A stretch of DNA of 19,728 nucleotides from Escherichia coli (GTDB taxonomy: Bacteria > Pseudomonadota > Gammaproteobacteria > Enterobacterales > Enterobacteriaceae): assembly GCF_003334255.1 (NCBI RefSeq), contig NZ_QOWU01000070.1, one strand, 5' to 3'. Within the stretch, counting starts at the first letter, position 1. Each line of letters starts with the position of its first letter. Made by a program: the position numbers and the translations under genes. The notes beneath the pieces were generated by a model, which saw only the letters and a list, made by a program, of their open reading frames with translations, searched no databases and was not told where the DNA came from. Below, in pieces: positions 11,761 to 17,379 of the stretch.

Positions 11761-12153
11761 TCAGAATAATTTTTTCATTTTAAGACGCACATCATTCATT
11801 GCCTTCTGCACCGAATCCGTAGCAGAAGGAGGCATTTTTTCAGCAGATTGCGAAGCACCGAGTTCAGTCAACACAGCTCTGATATCGGCCTGAGAAGGCT
11901 TCCATCCAGTCGTCTGACTGAGTAAGGTTACAACCTGATCTGCTGAAAACTCCTCGCTCAAAATGGCAGTCAGCAATACAGGCAGGCGAGGATCAAGTTG
12001 GTGTAACGCCATTCCAGAAATAAATGCATTCCGGAACAGCTCACCACGCTCAGAACGCGGAACGGACTCTATCGCTTCCAAAGTTTGAAAGTCTGCAGCT
12101 TTTTCCGGATGCAGATAAAGTGTGTATTTTTTCCTTTTCCGTTCATCGTCCAC
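11761..12153 (-). CDS. stbB: Partition adaptor StbB/ParR-like protein, about 131 aa
   Basis: Immediately downstream of the actin-type ATPase gene; GTG at 12151-12153 with SD AAAGAGGAG 7 nt upstream, just after the stbA stop (the track ATG at 12189 would overlap stbA by 32 nt). Assignment rests mainly on position. Confidence 0.55.
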   Translation of the reverse strand: MDDERKRKKYTLYLHPEKAADFQTLEAIESVPRSERGELFRNAFISGMALHQLDPRLPVLLTAILSEEFSADQVVTLLSQTTGWKPSQADIRAVLTELGASQSAEKMPPSATDSVQKAMNDVRLKMKKLF

Positions 12154-12157
12154 AATA

Positions 12158-13129
12158 TTACTCCTCTTTGAAAGCCGCGATAGCTTCAACCAGTGCTGTC
12201 TGTGGCGACTCCATCATCACTACTTTTTGCCCAAGATGGTGCCATGCCGTTTTTATCGAATCATAGATCAACGGGGCCCCACCACCGACAACATAAACAC
12301 GATTCACATGATGGAAATCACCGAGCTCATTGACTACTTGCTCCCCCAGACTGGCAATAGCCCCCTCAATGGTATTAAGGACCAGATCAGTTTTTGTTTC
12401 GTCATTTATAACCTGCCGAACAAAGTCCGGGTCATTACGACGTTTAATCAATTCATCTGCAACGAGGAAACTGGTATCACTGGATGCCATGCGCAATGCA
12501 CTCATTGCAGCTTTCGTAACTGAAGACACACCAATGCCAGAATTACCATGAATGGCACTTACAGAGTCAAATTGACCAACGATAACACCAACATCAAGCG
12601 TAGTGCCGCCAATATCAACTACCAGCGATTTTTCGAACTGACCAACTTTATCCATGACCAGACGAGAAAACACAGCTGGCAATGATTCAGGCATCACATC
12701 AACGTGTTCAATGGTGAAAACATCGCCTTTATTAAGACGAATCGGCCTCATTAAATTCTCAATTTTACGCTGAATGTTGAGTTCATTTTTTTGACACTCT
12801 TTCGTGTAGAACTCACTGATAGGCAAAGTCACAGTCAATGATACAGGCTGAGGCGCTAATCCACTATTCAGTAAAGCGTGATGCACAGCTAACAGGTTAA
12901 CATCCGTATATTGATACTCAATATGAGTCGTAAGAATAGATTGGTTACTAACTTCATCATACGTGTATTTTTTACCATCCAGTTCATAGTTAAATGTCTG
13001 GCGAATCCCTAACCCGTCAACCTTCCATCCATGACGAAATGAGTTTTGCGACAACGACTTACAGATTTTCCCATTGTCATTCCATGCCAACTTGATTGTT
13101 GTTGAACCATCATCGCAGTATACGTTCAT
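12158..13129 (-). CDS. stbA: Actin-like plasmid segregation ATPase (ParM/StbA family), 323 aa
   Basis: N-terminus MNVYCDDGSTTIKLAW parallels R1 ParM (MLVFIDDGSTNIKLQW), with phosphate motifs DIGGTTLD and VVGGGA; SD AAGGGG upstream of the ATG. Confidence 0.85.
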   Translation of the reverse strand: MNVYCDDGSTTIKLAWNDNGKICKSLSQNSFRHGWKVDGLGIRQTFNYELDGKKYTYDEVSNQSILTTHIEYQYTDVNLLAVHHALLNSGLAPQPVSLTVTLPISEFYTKECQKNELNIQRKIENLMRPIRLNKGDVFTIEHVDVMPESLPAVFSRLVMDKVGQFEKSLVVDIGGTTLDVGVIVGQFDSVSAIHGNSGIGVSSVTKAAMSALRMASSDTSFLVADELIKRRNDPDFVRQVINDETKTDLVLNTIEGAIASLGEQVVNELGDFHHVNRVYVVGGGAPLIYDSIKTAWHHLGQKVVMMESPQTALVEAIAAFKEE

Positions 13130-13357
13130 CTATAGCCCCTTAAATACTCAATCTGAGTAAATCACTGTTTCTGGTTGCAAGGTAATACTCAATTTGAGCA
13201 CCATCATAGTTATGAAATCACAAAACACAAGTATTATTTATTACATCACATGACTCACTTCATATTTCATACTTCATAAATGTGAACGCATATTGACACC
13301 TCAGGTTACCGTGTCAAAATATCATCATACTTCACACATCACATTTATGAGGTTGCA
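13130..13357. promoter_or_regulatory. AT-rich divergent promoter / centromere-like repeat region between stbA and parA
   Basis: Direct repeats AATACTCAATCTGAGTA (13143-13159) and AATACTCAATTTGAGCA (13183-13199), plus repeated ACTTCATA / ACATCACAT motifs; lies between divergently transcribed partition operons. Confidence 0.55.
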
Positions 13358-14002
13358 ATGATTACTGTAGTTGGTGGGAACAAAGGTGGTTCAGGGAAAA
13401 CTACCATTGCATCAAACCTGGCTATTGCTCTCGCAAATAAAGGAAGGGAAGTCTGCCTGTTAAACGGAGATCTACAACGAACAGCCGCAAAACATCATGC
13501 GGAACGAGAAGCTGCAGGACTGTTACCAGCAATAACCCTTGTTGAGAAATTTGATAATCTGACACAAACACTACAGGCTCTGAATGAAAAGTTCGATGAT
13601 GTAATAGTGGATGTCGCAGGAAGAAACTCAAAGGAATTCATAACGAGTGGAGTTGTCGCACATCAAATAATTGCGCCACTACAGTGTTCTCAACCAGATC
13701 TGGATACTCTTACAGAACTAGAACAACAGATAGACGCAATGCGTAACCTTAACCCGGAACTTAAGGTTTATTGTTTACAAAGTATGGCAACAACCAATCC
13801 GGTTTTGAGGGGAAATGAGAGAAAAGAATTCCTTGAATATCTTGAAGAATTCCCAACAATTCAAGTCCTGGATTCAGTTATTTGTTTCAGAAAAGTCTAT
13901 CGCGATTGCATGAGCAACGGCACCGGTGTAGTAGAAACGAACAATACAGCAGCCAAAGCAGAAATTGAACATTTAATGAATGAGGTATTTGGCCCATGGT
14001 GA
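13358..14002 (+). CDS. ParA-family (small, ParF-like) partition ATPase, 214 aa
   Basis: Deviant Walker A VVGGNKGGSGKTT near the N-terminus; SD GAGG upstream of the ATG. Confidence 0.85.
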   Translation: MITVVGGNKGGSGKTTIASNLAIALANKGREVCLLNGDLQRTAAKHHAEREAAGLLPAITLVEKFDNLTQTLQALNEKFDDVIVDVAGRNSKEFITSGVVAHQIIAPLQCSQPDLDTLTELEQQIDAMRNLNPELKVYCLQSMATTNPVLRGNERKEFLEYLEEFPTIQVLDSVICFRKVYRDCMSNGTGVVETNNTAAKAEIEHLMNEVFGPW

Positions 14003-14271
14003 AAAAACCCAGCCAGCAAGCATTAAACAGAGCTGCAGTTACGGTAGAACAAGCAGAGGCTCTGGCTCAGCGCCTTGCGGATAAACCATACGGCGCGCCG
14101 GAAAAAACCGAACCAGAAAAACAATGTCGGACGACAATCTCTCTTGGTGAAAGCATGCTTGTCACAATAGAAGATCTGGCATTGAGGAATAAACGCAATG
14201 GTAAAGATCCAAAAAATGTAAGTGCCATCGTCAGAGTAGCCCTTGAGCAATACTTAAAAACACTAACGTAA
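13996..14271 (+). CDS. Small partner protein of ParA (possible ParG/RHH-type centromere-binding protein), 91 aa
   Basis: Start overlaps the parA stop (ATGGTGA), indicating translational coupling; small, charged. Function inferred from position. Confidence 0.5.
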   Translation: MVKKPSQQALNRAAVTVEQAEALAQRLADKPYGAPEKTEPEKQCRTTISLGESMLVTIEDLALRNKRNGKDPKNVSAIVRVALEQYLKTLT

Positions 14272-14340
14272 TAATCAAGAAGTTATTACTTATGAAATCA
14301 CACTTGTGAATTCATACTGTTTAAGCACCCTTGCATACAA

Positions 14341-14371
14341 GAGATCACATATTGCAGTGGTCTCTTTTATT
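14341..14371 (+). terminator. Rho-independent terminator after the parA operon
   Basis: Stem GAGATCAC / GTGGTCTC (one G-U pair), 8-nt loop, followed by TTTTATT. Confidence 0.6.
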
Positions 14372-14401
14372 ACAGAATAATTCATAATTATGATTTGTGA
14401 A

Positions 14402-15184
14402 TTATGCGTGTCTGTTTTTCAGCATTGTGACCGCATCGGACTCAGGCATCAAAAACTGCACCCGGTGCCGTGCAGCCACATCCAGTGCAAACACCTTCGT
14501 GTAGACCTCCGTTGAGCTGATGGACTTATGCCCCATCAGGCTCTGCAGGACCTTCAGCGGTATACCGGCATACAGCATGTGCATCGCATAGGAATGGCGG
14601 AACGTATGTGGCGTGACCGGGACAGAGAACGTCACACCATCAGCGGCAGCGGCGGCAACCGCCTCCCCAATCCAGGTCCTGACCGTTCTGTCAGTCACTT
14701 CCCAGATCCGCGCTTTCTCTGTCCTGCCTGTTCGTTTATTACGCCGTTCCATGGGGATTTTCAGTGTTGCCACCATCGTCTGCAGCTGGCTGACGTACCA
14801 GGAGTCGGAGAGCGGAACCAGCCGGTGAGTCTGCTGACCGGCGGGCATTCTTCCTGCCGTCCTGGCGGCTTTTTCTGTCCGCTGCTTCAGAGTGGCCAGT
14901 TGCACAAACGGATACGGGGGCGCAAGCGAAAAATCCCCCCGCGTCAGCGCCAGTGCTTCATTAATGCGCGCACCGGTGTTCCACAGTGTGGCCAGCAGCA
15001 TCTTGCGGCGCAGATCCGGGACGTAATGGAGCAGGGCGCTCACTTCAGGGGCCAGCAGGTATTTTGGCAGTTCATCATGAACCATCGACATCTGGCGGAG
15101 TGCCAGCGCTGCCGGATAATCGATGGCAACAGGAAGCTGAGCAGCATCCCGGGCATGGTGGATCGGTGCCGGCAGGTGCTGCAT
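14402..15184 (-). CDS. Tyrosine site-specific recombinase (XerD/ResD-like), 260 aa
   Basis: C-terminal catalytic signature HTFRHSYAMHMLYAGIPLKVLQSLMGHKSISSTEVYTKV and upstream TLWNTGARINEAL (R...H..R..Y). The ATG at 15182-15184 sits 1 nt after the upstream gene stop; the track ORF begins earlier at 15337. Confidence 0.88.
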   Translation of the reverse strand: MQHLPAPIHHARDAAQLPVAIDYPAALALRQMSMVHDELPKYLLAPEVSALLHYVPDLRRKMLLATLWNTGARINEALALTRGDFSLAPPYPFVQLATLKQRTEKAARTAGRMPAGQQTHRLVPLSDSWYVSQLQTMVATLKIPMERRNKRTGRTEKARIWEVTDRTVRTWIGEAVAAAAADGVTFSVPVTPHTFRHSYAMHMLYAGIPLKVLQSLMGHKSISSTEVYTKVFALDVAARHRVQFLMPESDAVTMLKNRHA

Positions 15185-15185
15185 A

Positions 15186-15599
15186 TCAGTGTTCACTCCA
15201 CGGGGAAACGTCGGGCAGGTTTTCCACAACACGGTACTTTCCCGGATAACGGAGCTGGTTACCGCCATGCGTCCGGACGGTGACAACAAAACCCCCTCCC
15301 TGGTTGTTTTCGGGGAGCAGGCGATCGCACTGCTCACTCAGCATGTGGATCACAAACGGCGCATCGCTGCCGTCTTCAAATACCAGTTCCAGCGCATCGC
15401 GGCCATTCAGCGTTCCCTTACTGATGATGACGTACTCAGCCCCCCGCATCTCCCTGAGTAAATGTTTTGCCGCATCCGGGACAAGCAGCCTGGCTGCGCC
15501 GGCATTCCAGCTGAGGTAGACATATCCGGCCTGCGCCTGTACAGACTGCCAGTAATCCGTTCTGGCGACAGCCTGACCTTCATTCTCAATAAAAAACAT
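15186..15599 (-). CDS. Hypothetical protein encoded directly upstream of, and co-transcribed with, the recombinase, 137 aa
   Basis: ATG at 15597-15599 with strong SD AAGGAG 7 nt upstream; stop adjacent to the recombinase start (TGATATG). Confidence 0.7.
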   Translation of the reverse strand: MFFIENEGQAVARTDYWQSVQAQAGYVYLSWNAGAARLLVPDAAKHLLREMRGAEYVIISKGTLNGRDALELVFEDGSDAPFVIHMLSEQCDRLLPENNQGGGFVVTVRTHGGNQLRYPGKYRVVENLPDVSPWSEH

Positions 15600-15682
15600 G
15601 GGTGACTCCTTTTTTCTTTTCCGGGCAGGGACGGTCATGCGATAACGTCATCCATCATCACTGCCCTTACCGTCACGCCGTC

Positions 15683-15929
15683 TGATAACATCATGCCGTT
15701 ATCATCATCACCATGATAACAAGCATCCATATAACCACGCCGTTAAATTACCGGAGAGCCGTTTCCGTCAGATCCGACTTTCCGGAATATCACAACTTTC
15801 CGGAAGTGTACCACGCTGAGAAAATAATCATATCGCTGTTTTCCGCCCCTGCGCGGCGCATCACAGGTCAGGGAGATGACACAACATATAGTGTCATCAG
15901 CAGCTGAATTCAGCACTACATATTGTGCT
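15683..15929. other. Cluster of inverted-repeat sites with 8-bp spacers; candidate recombination/resolution site for the adjacent tyrosine recombinase
   Basis: TGATAAC-ATCATGCC-GTTATCA (15683-15704); GATGACAC-AACATATA-GTGTCATC (15875-15898); AGCAC-TACATATT-GTGCT (15912-15929); plus the perfect palindrome GCTGAATTCAGC (15903-15914) and two TTTCCGGAA copies near 15779-15806. Confidence 0.4.
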
Positions 15930-16036
15930 GACAGGAGGTGGCGTTATGTGGGGGGAGAGGAAGATCCTGAACTGCCGGAAACCGGATCTGCGCGGCGGGG
16001 AACGGGCATGAAATATGATAATTAAGCAACATACAC

Positions 16037-16130
16037 AAAATCATATCAGATATGATTTTTATCATTTATGGTAAATCATATCTGATATTATAAGAATTCA
16101 ATAACCAATAAATCATATATAATATGATTT
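16037..16130. promoter_or_regulatory. Three operator-like palindromes AAATCATAT-N1-3-ATATGATTT upstream of the 16167 operon
   Basis: Perfect palindromes at 16037-16059 (11-bp arms) and 16110-16130 (9-bp arms); a degenerate copy at 16074-16090; all in an AT-rich stretch ending ~35 bp before the ATG at 16167. Confidence 0.55.
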
Positions 16131-16166
16131 TTACCTGTCAGAACATTATCAGATGGAGTGTGCAGG

Positions 16167-16424
16167 ATGGATGAAGAACGGGTGTTTTCACTCAGCTATG
16201 AACAACTGACCCGGTTTGCGGAACGACGCATCCGGGAATGCAATCTGGACAGCCAGGGCGCAATTTATCTCTGCGAGTCAGCCAAAGCCGGAGCCGTGCT
16301 GATCTTCTGGCATGAACTGGCCATAAATGGCTATGCCTCAATGAATGCCATAAAGAGACAGGAGCTCATTGACGCCGACTTTCAGCGCCTCAGAAAGCTC
16401 ATCTGGCCGGAGGATGACAGGTAA
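16167..16424 (+). CDS. Hypothetical protein, 85 aa, first gene of a two-gene operon
   Basis: ATG at 16167 with SD GGAGTG (the track begins at a GTG at 16158); stop overlaps the next start (TAATG). Confidence 0.6.
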   Translation: MDEERVFSLSYEQLTRFAERRIRECNLDSQGAIYLCESAKAGAVLIFWHELAINGYASMNAIKRQELIDADFQRLRKLIWPEDDR

Positions 16425-17014
16425 TGACCCAGAGCCGCCGACCGTCGCCACTGCAGCGGAGAGTGCTGATTGTGCTGGCTGCGCTTGATGAAAAACGGCC
16501 GGGCCCCGTGCTGACGCGGGACCTGGAACGGGTGCTGGAGCGAAGCGGGGAAGCCCCGGTCTACGGGCCAAACCTGCGCGCCTCCTGCCGTCGTCTGGAG
16601 GATGCCGGCTGGCTGCGTACCCTGCGCGCTCTAAACCTGCAGCTGGCAGTGGAGCTGACGGACGCCGGCCGGGCCGTGGCACAGCCTCTGCTGCTGGCAG
16701 AACAGGACCGCCTCCGGGAAGAACAGCGTGCGGCAGAAGTCGTCGTACTGCCGCTGGTCCCGGCAACAGGTCTGCCCGCAGACGGCACTTCTGCCACTGA
16801 TCTGGCGGTGGAGCTGAACGGCATGACGTATCAGGCCTGCCGTGGGGATTTTGTGGTGCGTCTCGACGGCAGCACCTGTCTGCAGTTATGGAATAAAGAA
16901 GGCAGAGTGGTACGCCGGGAGGGCGATCCACTGGAAGTGGCGCAGTGGCTGCAGGCCTGTCACGATGCAGGAATGGAGGTTCGTGTGCAGGTTAATGAAA
17001 GCACCAACCCGTAA
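16424..17014 (+). CDS. Hypothetical protein, 196 aa, conspicuously GC-rich relative to its neighbours, possible N-terminal HTH
   Basis: Codon third positions strongly G/C-biased in this frame (CTG, GCC, CGC), supporting plus-strand coding over the antisense ORF 16338-16931. N-terminal LQRRVLIVLAALDEKRPGPVLTRDLERVL resembles a DNA-binding helix pair. Confidence 0.6.
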   Translation: MTQSRRPSPLQRRVLIVLAALDEKRPGPVLTRDLERVLERSGEAPVYGPNLRASCRRLEDAGWLRTLRALNLQLAVELTDAGRAVAQPLLLAEQDRLREEQRAAEVVVLPLVPATGLPADGTSATDLAVELNGMTYQACRGDFVVRLDGSTCLQLWNKEGRVVRREGDPLEVAQWLQACHDAGMEVRVQVNESTNP

Positions 17015-17031
17015 AAACATGCCTGCACGGT

Positions 17032-17379
17032 TTACACATCATCCCATGGTGGCAGCCGGTTAACTTTCCTGCGCCACCAGTGGAGAGAGGCCATAAGCAG
17101 TCCGTACAAAAAACCATTCGTGATACTTATAATAATGGCCTCACCTGCTACCATTCCTGACGGCCCCCAGTAGATAAACCACATTGCACATCCCCAGGAA
17201 ATGCCCCATAAGCCCCCCGTCAGCACCGTGACCTGCCAGAACGGCATAAAGGGTAATGGCGGAAGCCGGATACCCAGCCGCCAGAGAATACGCAGAAGAG
17301 GAGGGGCATAATTGCTCCGCCACATCTTTTTGCTGTCCATCAGGGCAATGGCCCGTGCTTTTTTCTGCTCAAAGGTCAC
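17032..17379 (-). CDS. Small hydrophobic membrane protein, 115 aa
   Basis: GTG start with SD GGAGG 7 nt upstream; at least two hydrophobic, Trp/Gly-rich segments (VTVLTGGLWGISWGCAMWFIYWGPSGMVAGEAIIISITNGFLYGLLMASL). Confidence 0.6.
   Translation of the reverse strand: MTFEQKKARAIALMDSKKMWRSNYAPPLLRILWRLGIRLPPLPFMPFWQVTVLTGGLWGISWGCAMWFIYWGPSGMVAGEAIIISITNGFLYGLLMASLHWWRRKVNRLPPWDDV

Follow-up and report, generated by a model that had tools for sequence, protein, structure and literature searches.

A probable F-type ResD/rfsF recombination module with a variable cargo slot in an IncI-complex plasmid of Escherichia coli

The F plasmid encodes a site-specific recombination system in which the tyrosine recombinase ResD acts at the site rfsF. 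This 28-bp site has 10-bp inverted arms around a variable 8-bp spacer, with the pattern AGATCCGNAA-N8-TTNCGGATCT, and was searched for as AGATCCGNAANNNNNNNNTTNCGGATCT in a study in which pOX38 fused with, and was then resolved from, Klebsiella virulence plasmids (PMC8299605). The rfsF-ResD pair is a junction for module exchange in IncI1, IncR and IncF plasmids (PMC8004404, PMC9412624, PMC4398462), with the groups of genes termed 'Delta' and 'Col' in IncI1 plasmids and the insertions of IncR plasmids switching at rfsF (PMC8004404, PMC9412624). We analysed a 19,728-nt stretch of E. coli DNA (contig NZ_QOWU01000070.1; the whole stretch is called the window below) in which a preliminary description had noted a tyrosine recombinase gene, an adjoining gene for a 137-residue protein and three inverted repeats with 8-bp spacers. 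It had taken these for a multimer-resolution or inversion module, with the repeats as recombinase core sites and the small protein as accessory partner. We conclude that the locus is very probably an F-type ResD/rfsF site-specific recombination module, a system already known. The recombination system itself is textbook plasmid biology, and the value of the analysis lies mainly in correcting the annotation, as the functional site would be 15962-15989 and not the three obvious palindromes.

The recombinase gene, resD, lies on the minus strand at 14402-15184. The mechanically called open reading frame (ORF) starts at a GTG at 15337, but public annotation and homology both place the start at the ATG at 15184, giving a protein of 260 residues. 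The product is 95% identical to F-plasmid ResD over 250 of its 260 residues (E=4e-176) and has a Pfam Phage_integrase domain at residues 42-231 (E=2e-17). It also matches XerC/XerD-type NCBIfam models, every one under its cut-off. Residues R73, H193, R196, H219 and Y228, which from knowledge of the family we take to be the catalytic R..HxxR..H..Y set, are invariant in our ResD alignment (A4). Judged by this similarity, the 260-residue enzyme is the orthologue of F ResD, or D protein, in an F-type ResD/rfsF module. The resolution-module part of the original proposal is thus borne out, while its assignment of the sites is not. The D protein is said to have been described, by Lane et al. in 1986, as both resolvase and transcriptional repressor.

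The likely crossover site has the form AGATCCTGAA-CTGCCGGA-AACCGGATCT and occupies 15962-15989, with arms at 15962-15971 and 15980-15989 and the spacer CTGCCGGA at 15972-15979. No other sequence in the window fits the published rfsF pattern within 3 mismatches, where 0.01 matches would be expected by chance, and the site aligns with the F site at 45922-45949 as its positional homologue. The homology of pEC958 to F starts at the F rfsF coordinate (PMC4398462). The site sits 33 bp past the end of the range flagged in the preliminary description. Its arms are imperfect here, and it was probably overlooked because perfect symmetry is limited to the outer 6 bp.

A scan with the ResD alignment, using one genome per species, found 78 loci, 47 of which have a conserved non-coding block upstream of resD on the same strand. 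We aligned the 41 distinct versions of the block, together with the adjoining site, to obtain a conservation profile. Across them the outer rfsF arms, AGATCCG and CGGATCT, are near-invariant, whereas no such constraint is seen on the inner arm bases or the spacer. With its arms kept and its spacer variable, rfsF behaves as a crossover site. GATC (Dam) sites occur in both rfsF arms, and in a solitary arm-like motif at 15770-15779, and hardly vary within the family. One 8-mer, TCCGGCAG, is present in the rfsF spacer and again at about codons 23-25 of resD, which we put down to coincidence, given that the coding sequence is under constraint and spacers differ from plasmid to plasmid.

The mosaic structure of the window points to the same site. 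Breakpoints were mapped by BLAST of 15840-16160 (query positions 1-319), which gave two classes of match, one ending at about 15967-15990 (query 1-128, 1-134 or 1-151) and the other beginning at about 15965-15974 (query 126 or 135 to 319). Plasmid pRK1 has the left flank, left arm and first spacer base in common with the window and then diverges; three other loci (L012, L013 and L014) agree with it in GCC(G/A)GA, right arm and right flank but differ from it on the left. The changeover in homology to other plasmids falls between 15972 and 15974, inside the rfsF spacer. The left side (block, small gene and resD) and the right side (ORFs of 88 and 196 codons and the colicin immunity gene) have different sets of relatives. 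By these matches the window is a mosaic of a left and a right module joined at 15972-15974 within the spacer. Exchange by a tyrosine recombinase would leave just such a junction inside the 8-bp spacer, and comparison of the plasmids points to strand exchange within the rfsF spacer.

It seems likely, then, that the system works as it does in F. ResD would exchange strands in the 8-bp spacer of rfsF at 15962-15989, as is established for F and expected here by orthology. A plasmid dimer with two directly repeated copies of rfsF would be returned to monomers by ResD, and two plasmids that each bear rfsF could be fused and separated again by the same enzyme. The adjacent block may supply extra sites for ResD, for a host factor or for both, as well as the promoter of the downstream operon. 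In the window's plasmid rfsF is the join of a colicin-side module and a resD/partition-side module. The junction bears on the reshuffling and fusion of IncI, IncK, IncF and IncR plasmids, including those that carry resistance and virulence genes (PMC8299605, PMC8004404).

Several features of the right module were seen alongside. The module with the 88- and 196-residue ORFs, which overlap on the plus strand at 16158-17014, starts exactly at the rfsF spacer and recurs beside rfsF-like sites in IncC, IncI-gamma/K1 and Klebsiella IncF plasmids. Upstream of these ORFs, at 16037-16131, a 19-22-nt near-palindrome, AAAATCATATCAGATATGATTT, occurs three times at a spacing of 35-37 bp, in what looks like an operator array of the operon of these two genes. 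In two plasmids that have only the right module (L012 at about 2496-2525 and L013 at about 2487-2516), the rfsF-like site has the left arm ATCTCCG and not AGATCCG, and there is no adjoining resD. These sites may be degenerate or secondary leftovers of past fusions.

The three inverted repeats of the preliminary description are real. Site A, GATGACAC-AACATATA-GTGTCATC, is at 15875-15898; site B, TCAGCAC-TACATATT-GTGCTGA, is at 15910-15931; and site C, TGATAAC-N8-GTTATCA, is at 15683-15704, in the leader of the small gene and outside the conserved block. They lie 84-332 bp upstream of the start of the 137-codon ORF. Three perfect inverted repeats with arms of at least 7 nt and a spacer of 8 occur in the 361 nt of 15600-15960, whereas 5000 composition shuffles of the same stretch averaged 0.02 and none reached three. 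An excess so far above chance, in the arm-spacer-arm geometry of tyrosine-recombinase cores and upstream of a small gene that abuts resD with a 1-nt gap, is what makes it attractive to see A, B and C (15683-15931) as the recombinase cores and the 137-residue protein as an accessory recombination factor.

The conservation profile shows a different pattern. In the 41 blocks the 14-bp centres of A and B, with their CAC-N8-GTG cores, are kept (15880-15893, CACAACATATAGTG, in A and 15914-15927, CACTACATATTGTG, in B) while the outer arms vary, which is the reverse of the pattern of a crossover site; site C shows no conservation. Only in the E. coli IncI/IncK lineage do A and B have the outer arm bases that turn them into 7-8-bp palindromes, and the two are inverted copies of a motif near AACACAACATRT, 34 bp apart. 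None of the three repeats has arms like the AGATCCG of the published site, and the mosaic junctions are at 15972-15974 and not at A, B or C. The small protein accompanies ResD in only 2 of the 47 loci, and its homologues mostly occur where there is no ResD. Neither the use of the repeats as core sites nor the role of the protein as accessory partner stood up to these comparisons, and we regard the two together as extremely improbable. The fragment 15680-15930, which had been suggested for a resolution assay, is without rfsF and would probably give a false negative. No convincing match of A, B or C to a Fur box, a DnaA box, an IHF site or an ArgR site was found by eye.

The ResD/rfsF reading leaves A and B as parts of the conserved block, which covers about 250-300 bp between rfsF and the small gene (about 15714-15961, minus strand). 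Positions 15714-15960 match at least 5000 plasmid records, in stretches with no annotated gene, and an Rfam search of 14300-16300 gave no match. The block aligns with 45950-46250 of F, between pifC and ccdA. As this F stretch is labelled oriV-1 (PMC4398462), the block with A and B might be a replication origin (the oriV-1 of F) and not part of a recombination system. The block, however, is found with resD in 47 loci whose replicons differ (IncI-complex, IncK, IncFII, Rep3-type and others), with its strand and its side of rfsF unchanged. That it follows resD across unrelated replicons argues for a primary tie to ResD and not to the RepFIA replicon. We think an origin in place of a recombination function unlikely, though the block could have both roles.

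Other elements of the block equal or exceed A and B in conservation. A solitary third copy of the rfsF arm motif, AGATCCGACT, lies at 15770-15779, with its CGGATC core kept in at least 95% of the 41 blocks; it contains the arm-like AGATCCGA (15770-15777), an AGATCCG motif. We suggest that it is a putative accessory binding site for ResD. The most conserved element of all, ACTTTCCGGAAGTGTACCAC at 15795-15814, has TTCCGGA in common with the consensus of the rfsF right arm, and an TTCCGGAA element of the block lies within it at 15798-15805. The stretch CCGGTAATTTAAC...TGGTTATAT (15729-15753) is the other part conserved at least to the degree of A and B. Within it, TGGTTATAT (15729-15737, minus strand) is a candidate extended -10 element of the operon that ends in resD, and is conserved in the 41-block profile. 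Taken together, these features suggest that the block is accessory and regulatory DNA of the ResD system and not its crossover site.

Between the block and the small gene, at 15641-15721, are four GTTATC/GATAAC hexamers, site C among them, with an overlapping 8-nt-arm inverted repeat at 15698-15720; 4 of the 15 copies in the window thus lie in a stretch of 80 bp. The two other loci that combine this small gene with resD (L015 and L066) have the identical cluster. The cluster is absent upstream of homologues of the small gene elsewhere, and is not conserved with other genes in this position. The RNA fold of the leader is only modestly better than that of shuffles (z=-2.0), and an attenuator formed by alternative hairpins of these hexamers was dropped for this reason.

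The small gene occupies 15186-15599 on the minus strand. Direct reading of the sequence gives a Shine-Dalgarno AGGAG at 15606-15610, 6 nt upstream of its ATG, and its TGA stop (15186-15188) is one nucleotide from the resD ATG. The description of a 137-codon ORF with a Shine-Dalgarno sequence abutting the recombinase was therefore correct. The best match of the protein in AFDB is 97% identical and named YedA. A paper on IncI1 plasmids gives the name yedA to a gene near the colicin Ia immunity gene, a placement that fits the gene order of the window; we use the name here. Being co-oriented with resD and abutting it with a 1-nt gap, yedA is probably co-transcribed and translationally coupled with the recombinase gene.

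F and F-like replicons have the order block, ccdA, ccdB, resD. Comparison of the loci shows the interval between block and resD to be a variable cargo slot, filled by ccdAB in F and by yedA here. The slot measures 480-2670 bp across the 47 species-representative loci (15186-15715 in the window, against L015-L091). YedA occupies it in two loci, a CcdB-like protein in 8 (with CcdA called in 4 of the 8) and a candidate defence protein similar to PDC-S67 in 15; the remaining loci have many other sets of one to four genes, including pairs of a small and a large gene of no known type. One occupant is a HamC/DUF3223-like small protein, and a common cargo carries the motif Rx4H and matches HEPN weakly (E=0.012). 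The slot is strikingly variable and is filled mostly by uncharacterised genes. The bodies of the ResD proteins are 85-96% identical between plasmids, whereas the first ~16 codons vary with the upstream cargo, so that the replaceable unit extends from the block's end to a point just within resD.

On this distribution YedA is an interchangeable passenger and not a dedicated partner of ResD. It could still act, in the lineages that have it, as a modulator of ResD, for example as a directionality or expression-coupling factor, even if not a universal one. The TGA-N-ATG junction, which implies coupled translation, the first ~16 resD codons that travel with each cargo and the presence of the exact protein on at least 1000 contigs (where it is labelled hypothetical every time) would fit such a role. 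Most members of the family, though, stand alone on plasmids and prophages with no ResD nearby: homologues are found in a Thiocystis prophage, beside the IncFII repA of Pantoea plasmids, near SSB and near an AcrVA2-like gene. In a Cronobacter plasmid a gene for 280 residues separates yedA from resD, and F ResD works with ccdAB in that position. As the protein also has no recognisable match to a DNA-binding, accessory-factor or recombinase-related fold, we consider a modulator role very unlikely.

The family of YedA is large, is found on mobile elements and has no known function or fold. A deep hidden Markov model search gathered 1123 clusters at 50% identity and gained no annotated relative. 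Pfam gave nothing informative for YedA, 41 family members and a 489-residue fusion protein, YedA had no match in NCBIfam, PHROGs or PADLOC, and the best hit of a PDB profile search had E=0.1. The fold, predicted with confidence (pLDDT, predicted local distance difference test, 88.8), is without a solved structural relative. In a Foldseek search of AFDB50 it matched uncharacterised family members only, together with one frameshift fusion to resD; the same search of BFVD gave none at E<=1e-3. A toxin-antitoxin of the CcdAB type was considered and rejected, as YedA is a single gene that forms a BLAST cluster apart from CcdA and CcdB and has no PADLOC or Pfam match.

Two sets of fusions were seen in the family. 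One assembled contig encodes a protein (P0039) in which the N-terminal ~50 residues of the DUF6404 protein are fused in frame to YedA from about residue 49. The window has a DUF6404 gene at 17032-17379 and yedA at 15186-15599, and the chimera would need a deletion of ~1.8 kb that includes rfsF and the 88- and 196-residue ORFs; either a genuine deletion or an error of assembly could account for it. In five other proteins (P0138, P0145, P0160, P0187 and P0246) the YedA domain is fused to two recurring uncharacterised domains, an N-terminal one with the motifs 'FEHITLNTGH...WLGDFERC' and a C-terminal one with 'ELPPEL..W.CY..D.GHSI...GYVVVD'. Neither has a Pfam or NCBIfam match.

Judging by what else fills the slot, YedA might serve plasmid maintenance or defence and anti-defence, not recombination, a suggestion that we make tentatively and to which we give rather less than an even chance. 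The broader picture is somewhat more doubtful still. Throughout the plasmids of Enterobacterales the slot may be a dedicated and often refilled site for addiction, defence or anti-defence genes, with ccdAB, PDC-S67-like genes, HEPN-like pairs and many genes of no known type among them, whose expression would be tied to the resolvase operon, and with YedA as a new single-gene factor for plasmid maintenance or anti-defence. In the Salmonella plasmid pSLT, ccdAB, two further genes and rsdB form one operon by experiment, and a second promoter is suspected (PMC5065971).

Some observations count against an F-type module with a passenger gene. The window rfsF differs from the published pattern at 3 positions, and one of its arms, CAGGATCT, has A for a usually conserved C, a variant present in 4 of the 41 blocks. 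The activity of this rfsF is therefore assumed. The F stretch homologous to the block carries the oriV-1 label. A scan of the minus strand of 15600-16000 for a sigma-70 consensus promoter found none, and the 1-nt gap between yedA and resD is also compatible with a functional partnership.

The surroundings of the locus fit a plasmid of the IncI complex. The 19,728-nt window matches E. coli plasmids such as NZ_CP116070.1 at 100% identity and a plasmid typed IncK2/Z at 99%, and the host replicon is an IncI-complex (typed IncK2/Z) colicin plasmid. The neighbouring genes encode ParM, a ParR-like protein, a ParA-like ATPase, a CopG-like protein and the colicin Ia/Ib immunity protein, and there is the 3' end of a colicin gene. 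Beside resD, at 11761-14271, is a back-to-back pair of partition-type systems. The first, on the minus strand, has ParM (12158-13129) and the small ParR-like gene (11761-12189); the second, on the plus strand, has a ParA-family ATPase (13358-14002) and an overlapping CopG-like gene of 91 codons (13996-14271).

Of the known systems, ResD/rfsF of F is the closest. The recombinases are 95% identical, rfsF has the corresponding place in both, with AGATCC...GGATCT arms and an 8-bp spacer, the 250-bp block beside it is homologous, and both have the order site, block, small gene or genes, resD on one strand. They differ in the slot (yedA in the window, ccdAB in F), in the replicon (IncI-complex, typed IncK2/Z, against RepFIA), in the inner arm bases and spacer of rfsF, and in the first ~16 residues of ResD.

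The Salmonella virulence plasmids offer a similar case. In Rsd/crs of pSDL2 and rsdB of pSLT a resolvase of the ResD family ends a polycistronic operon led by small genes, although pSLT has ccdAB and two further genes before rsdB and one after it. Co-transcription of the pSLT operon has been shown (PMC5065971), and the name rfsF-RsdB is used in PMC9412624.

The likeness to XerCD/cer of ColE1 and Cre/loxP of P1 is more general: in each the core on which a tyrosine recombinase acts consists of two inverted arms with a spacer of 6-8 bp between them. There is a conserved accessory region of ~200 bp on one side of the core of cer, as there would be at the present site, whereas loxP works without accessory DNA. 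ResD is plasmid-encoded and a single recombinase, in contrast to the pair of XerC and XerD, and falls far below the XerC/XerD NCBIfam cut-offs; we know of no dependence of ResD on ArgR or PepA. The last comparison is between the cargos. YedA is a single 137-residue protein with no similarity to CcdA or CcdB, but its gene takes the slot that ccdAB has in F, with the rfsF block on one side and the abutting recombinase gene, on the same strand, on the other.

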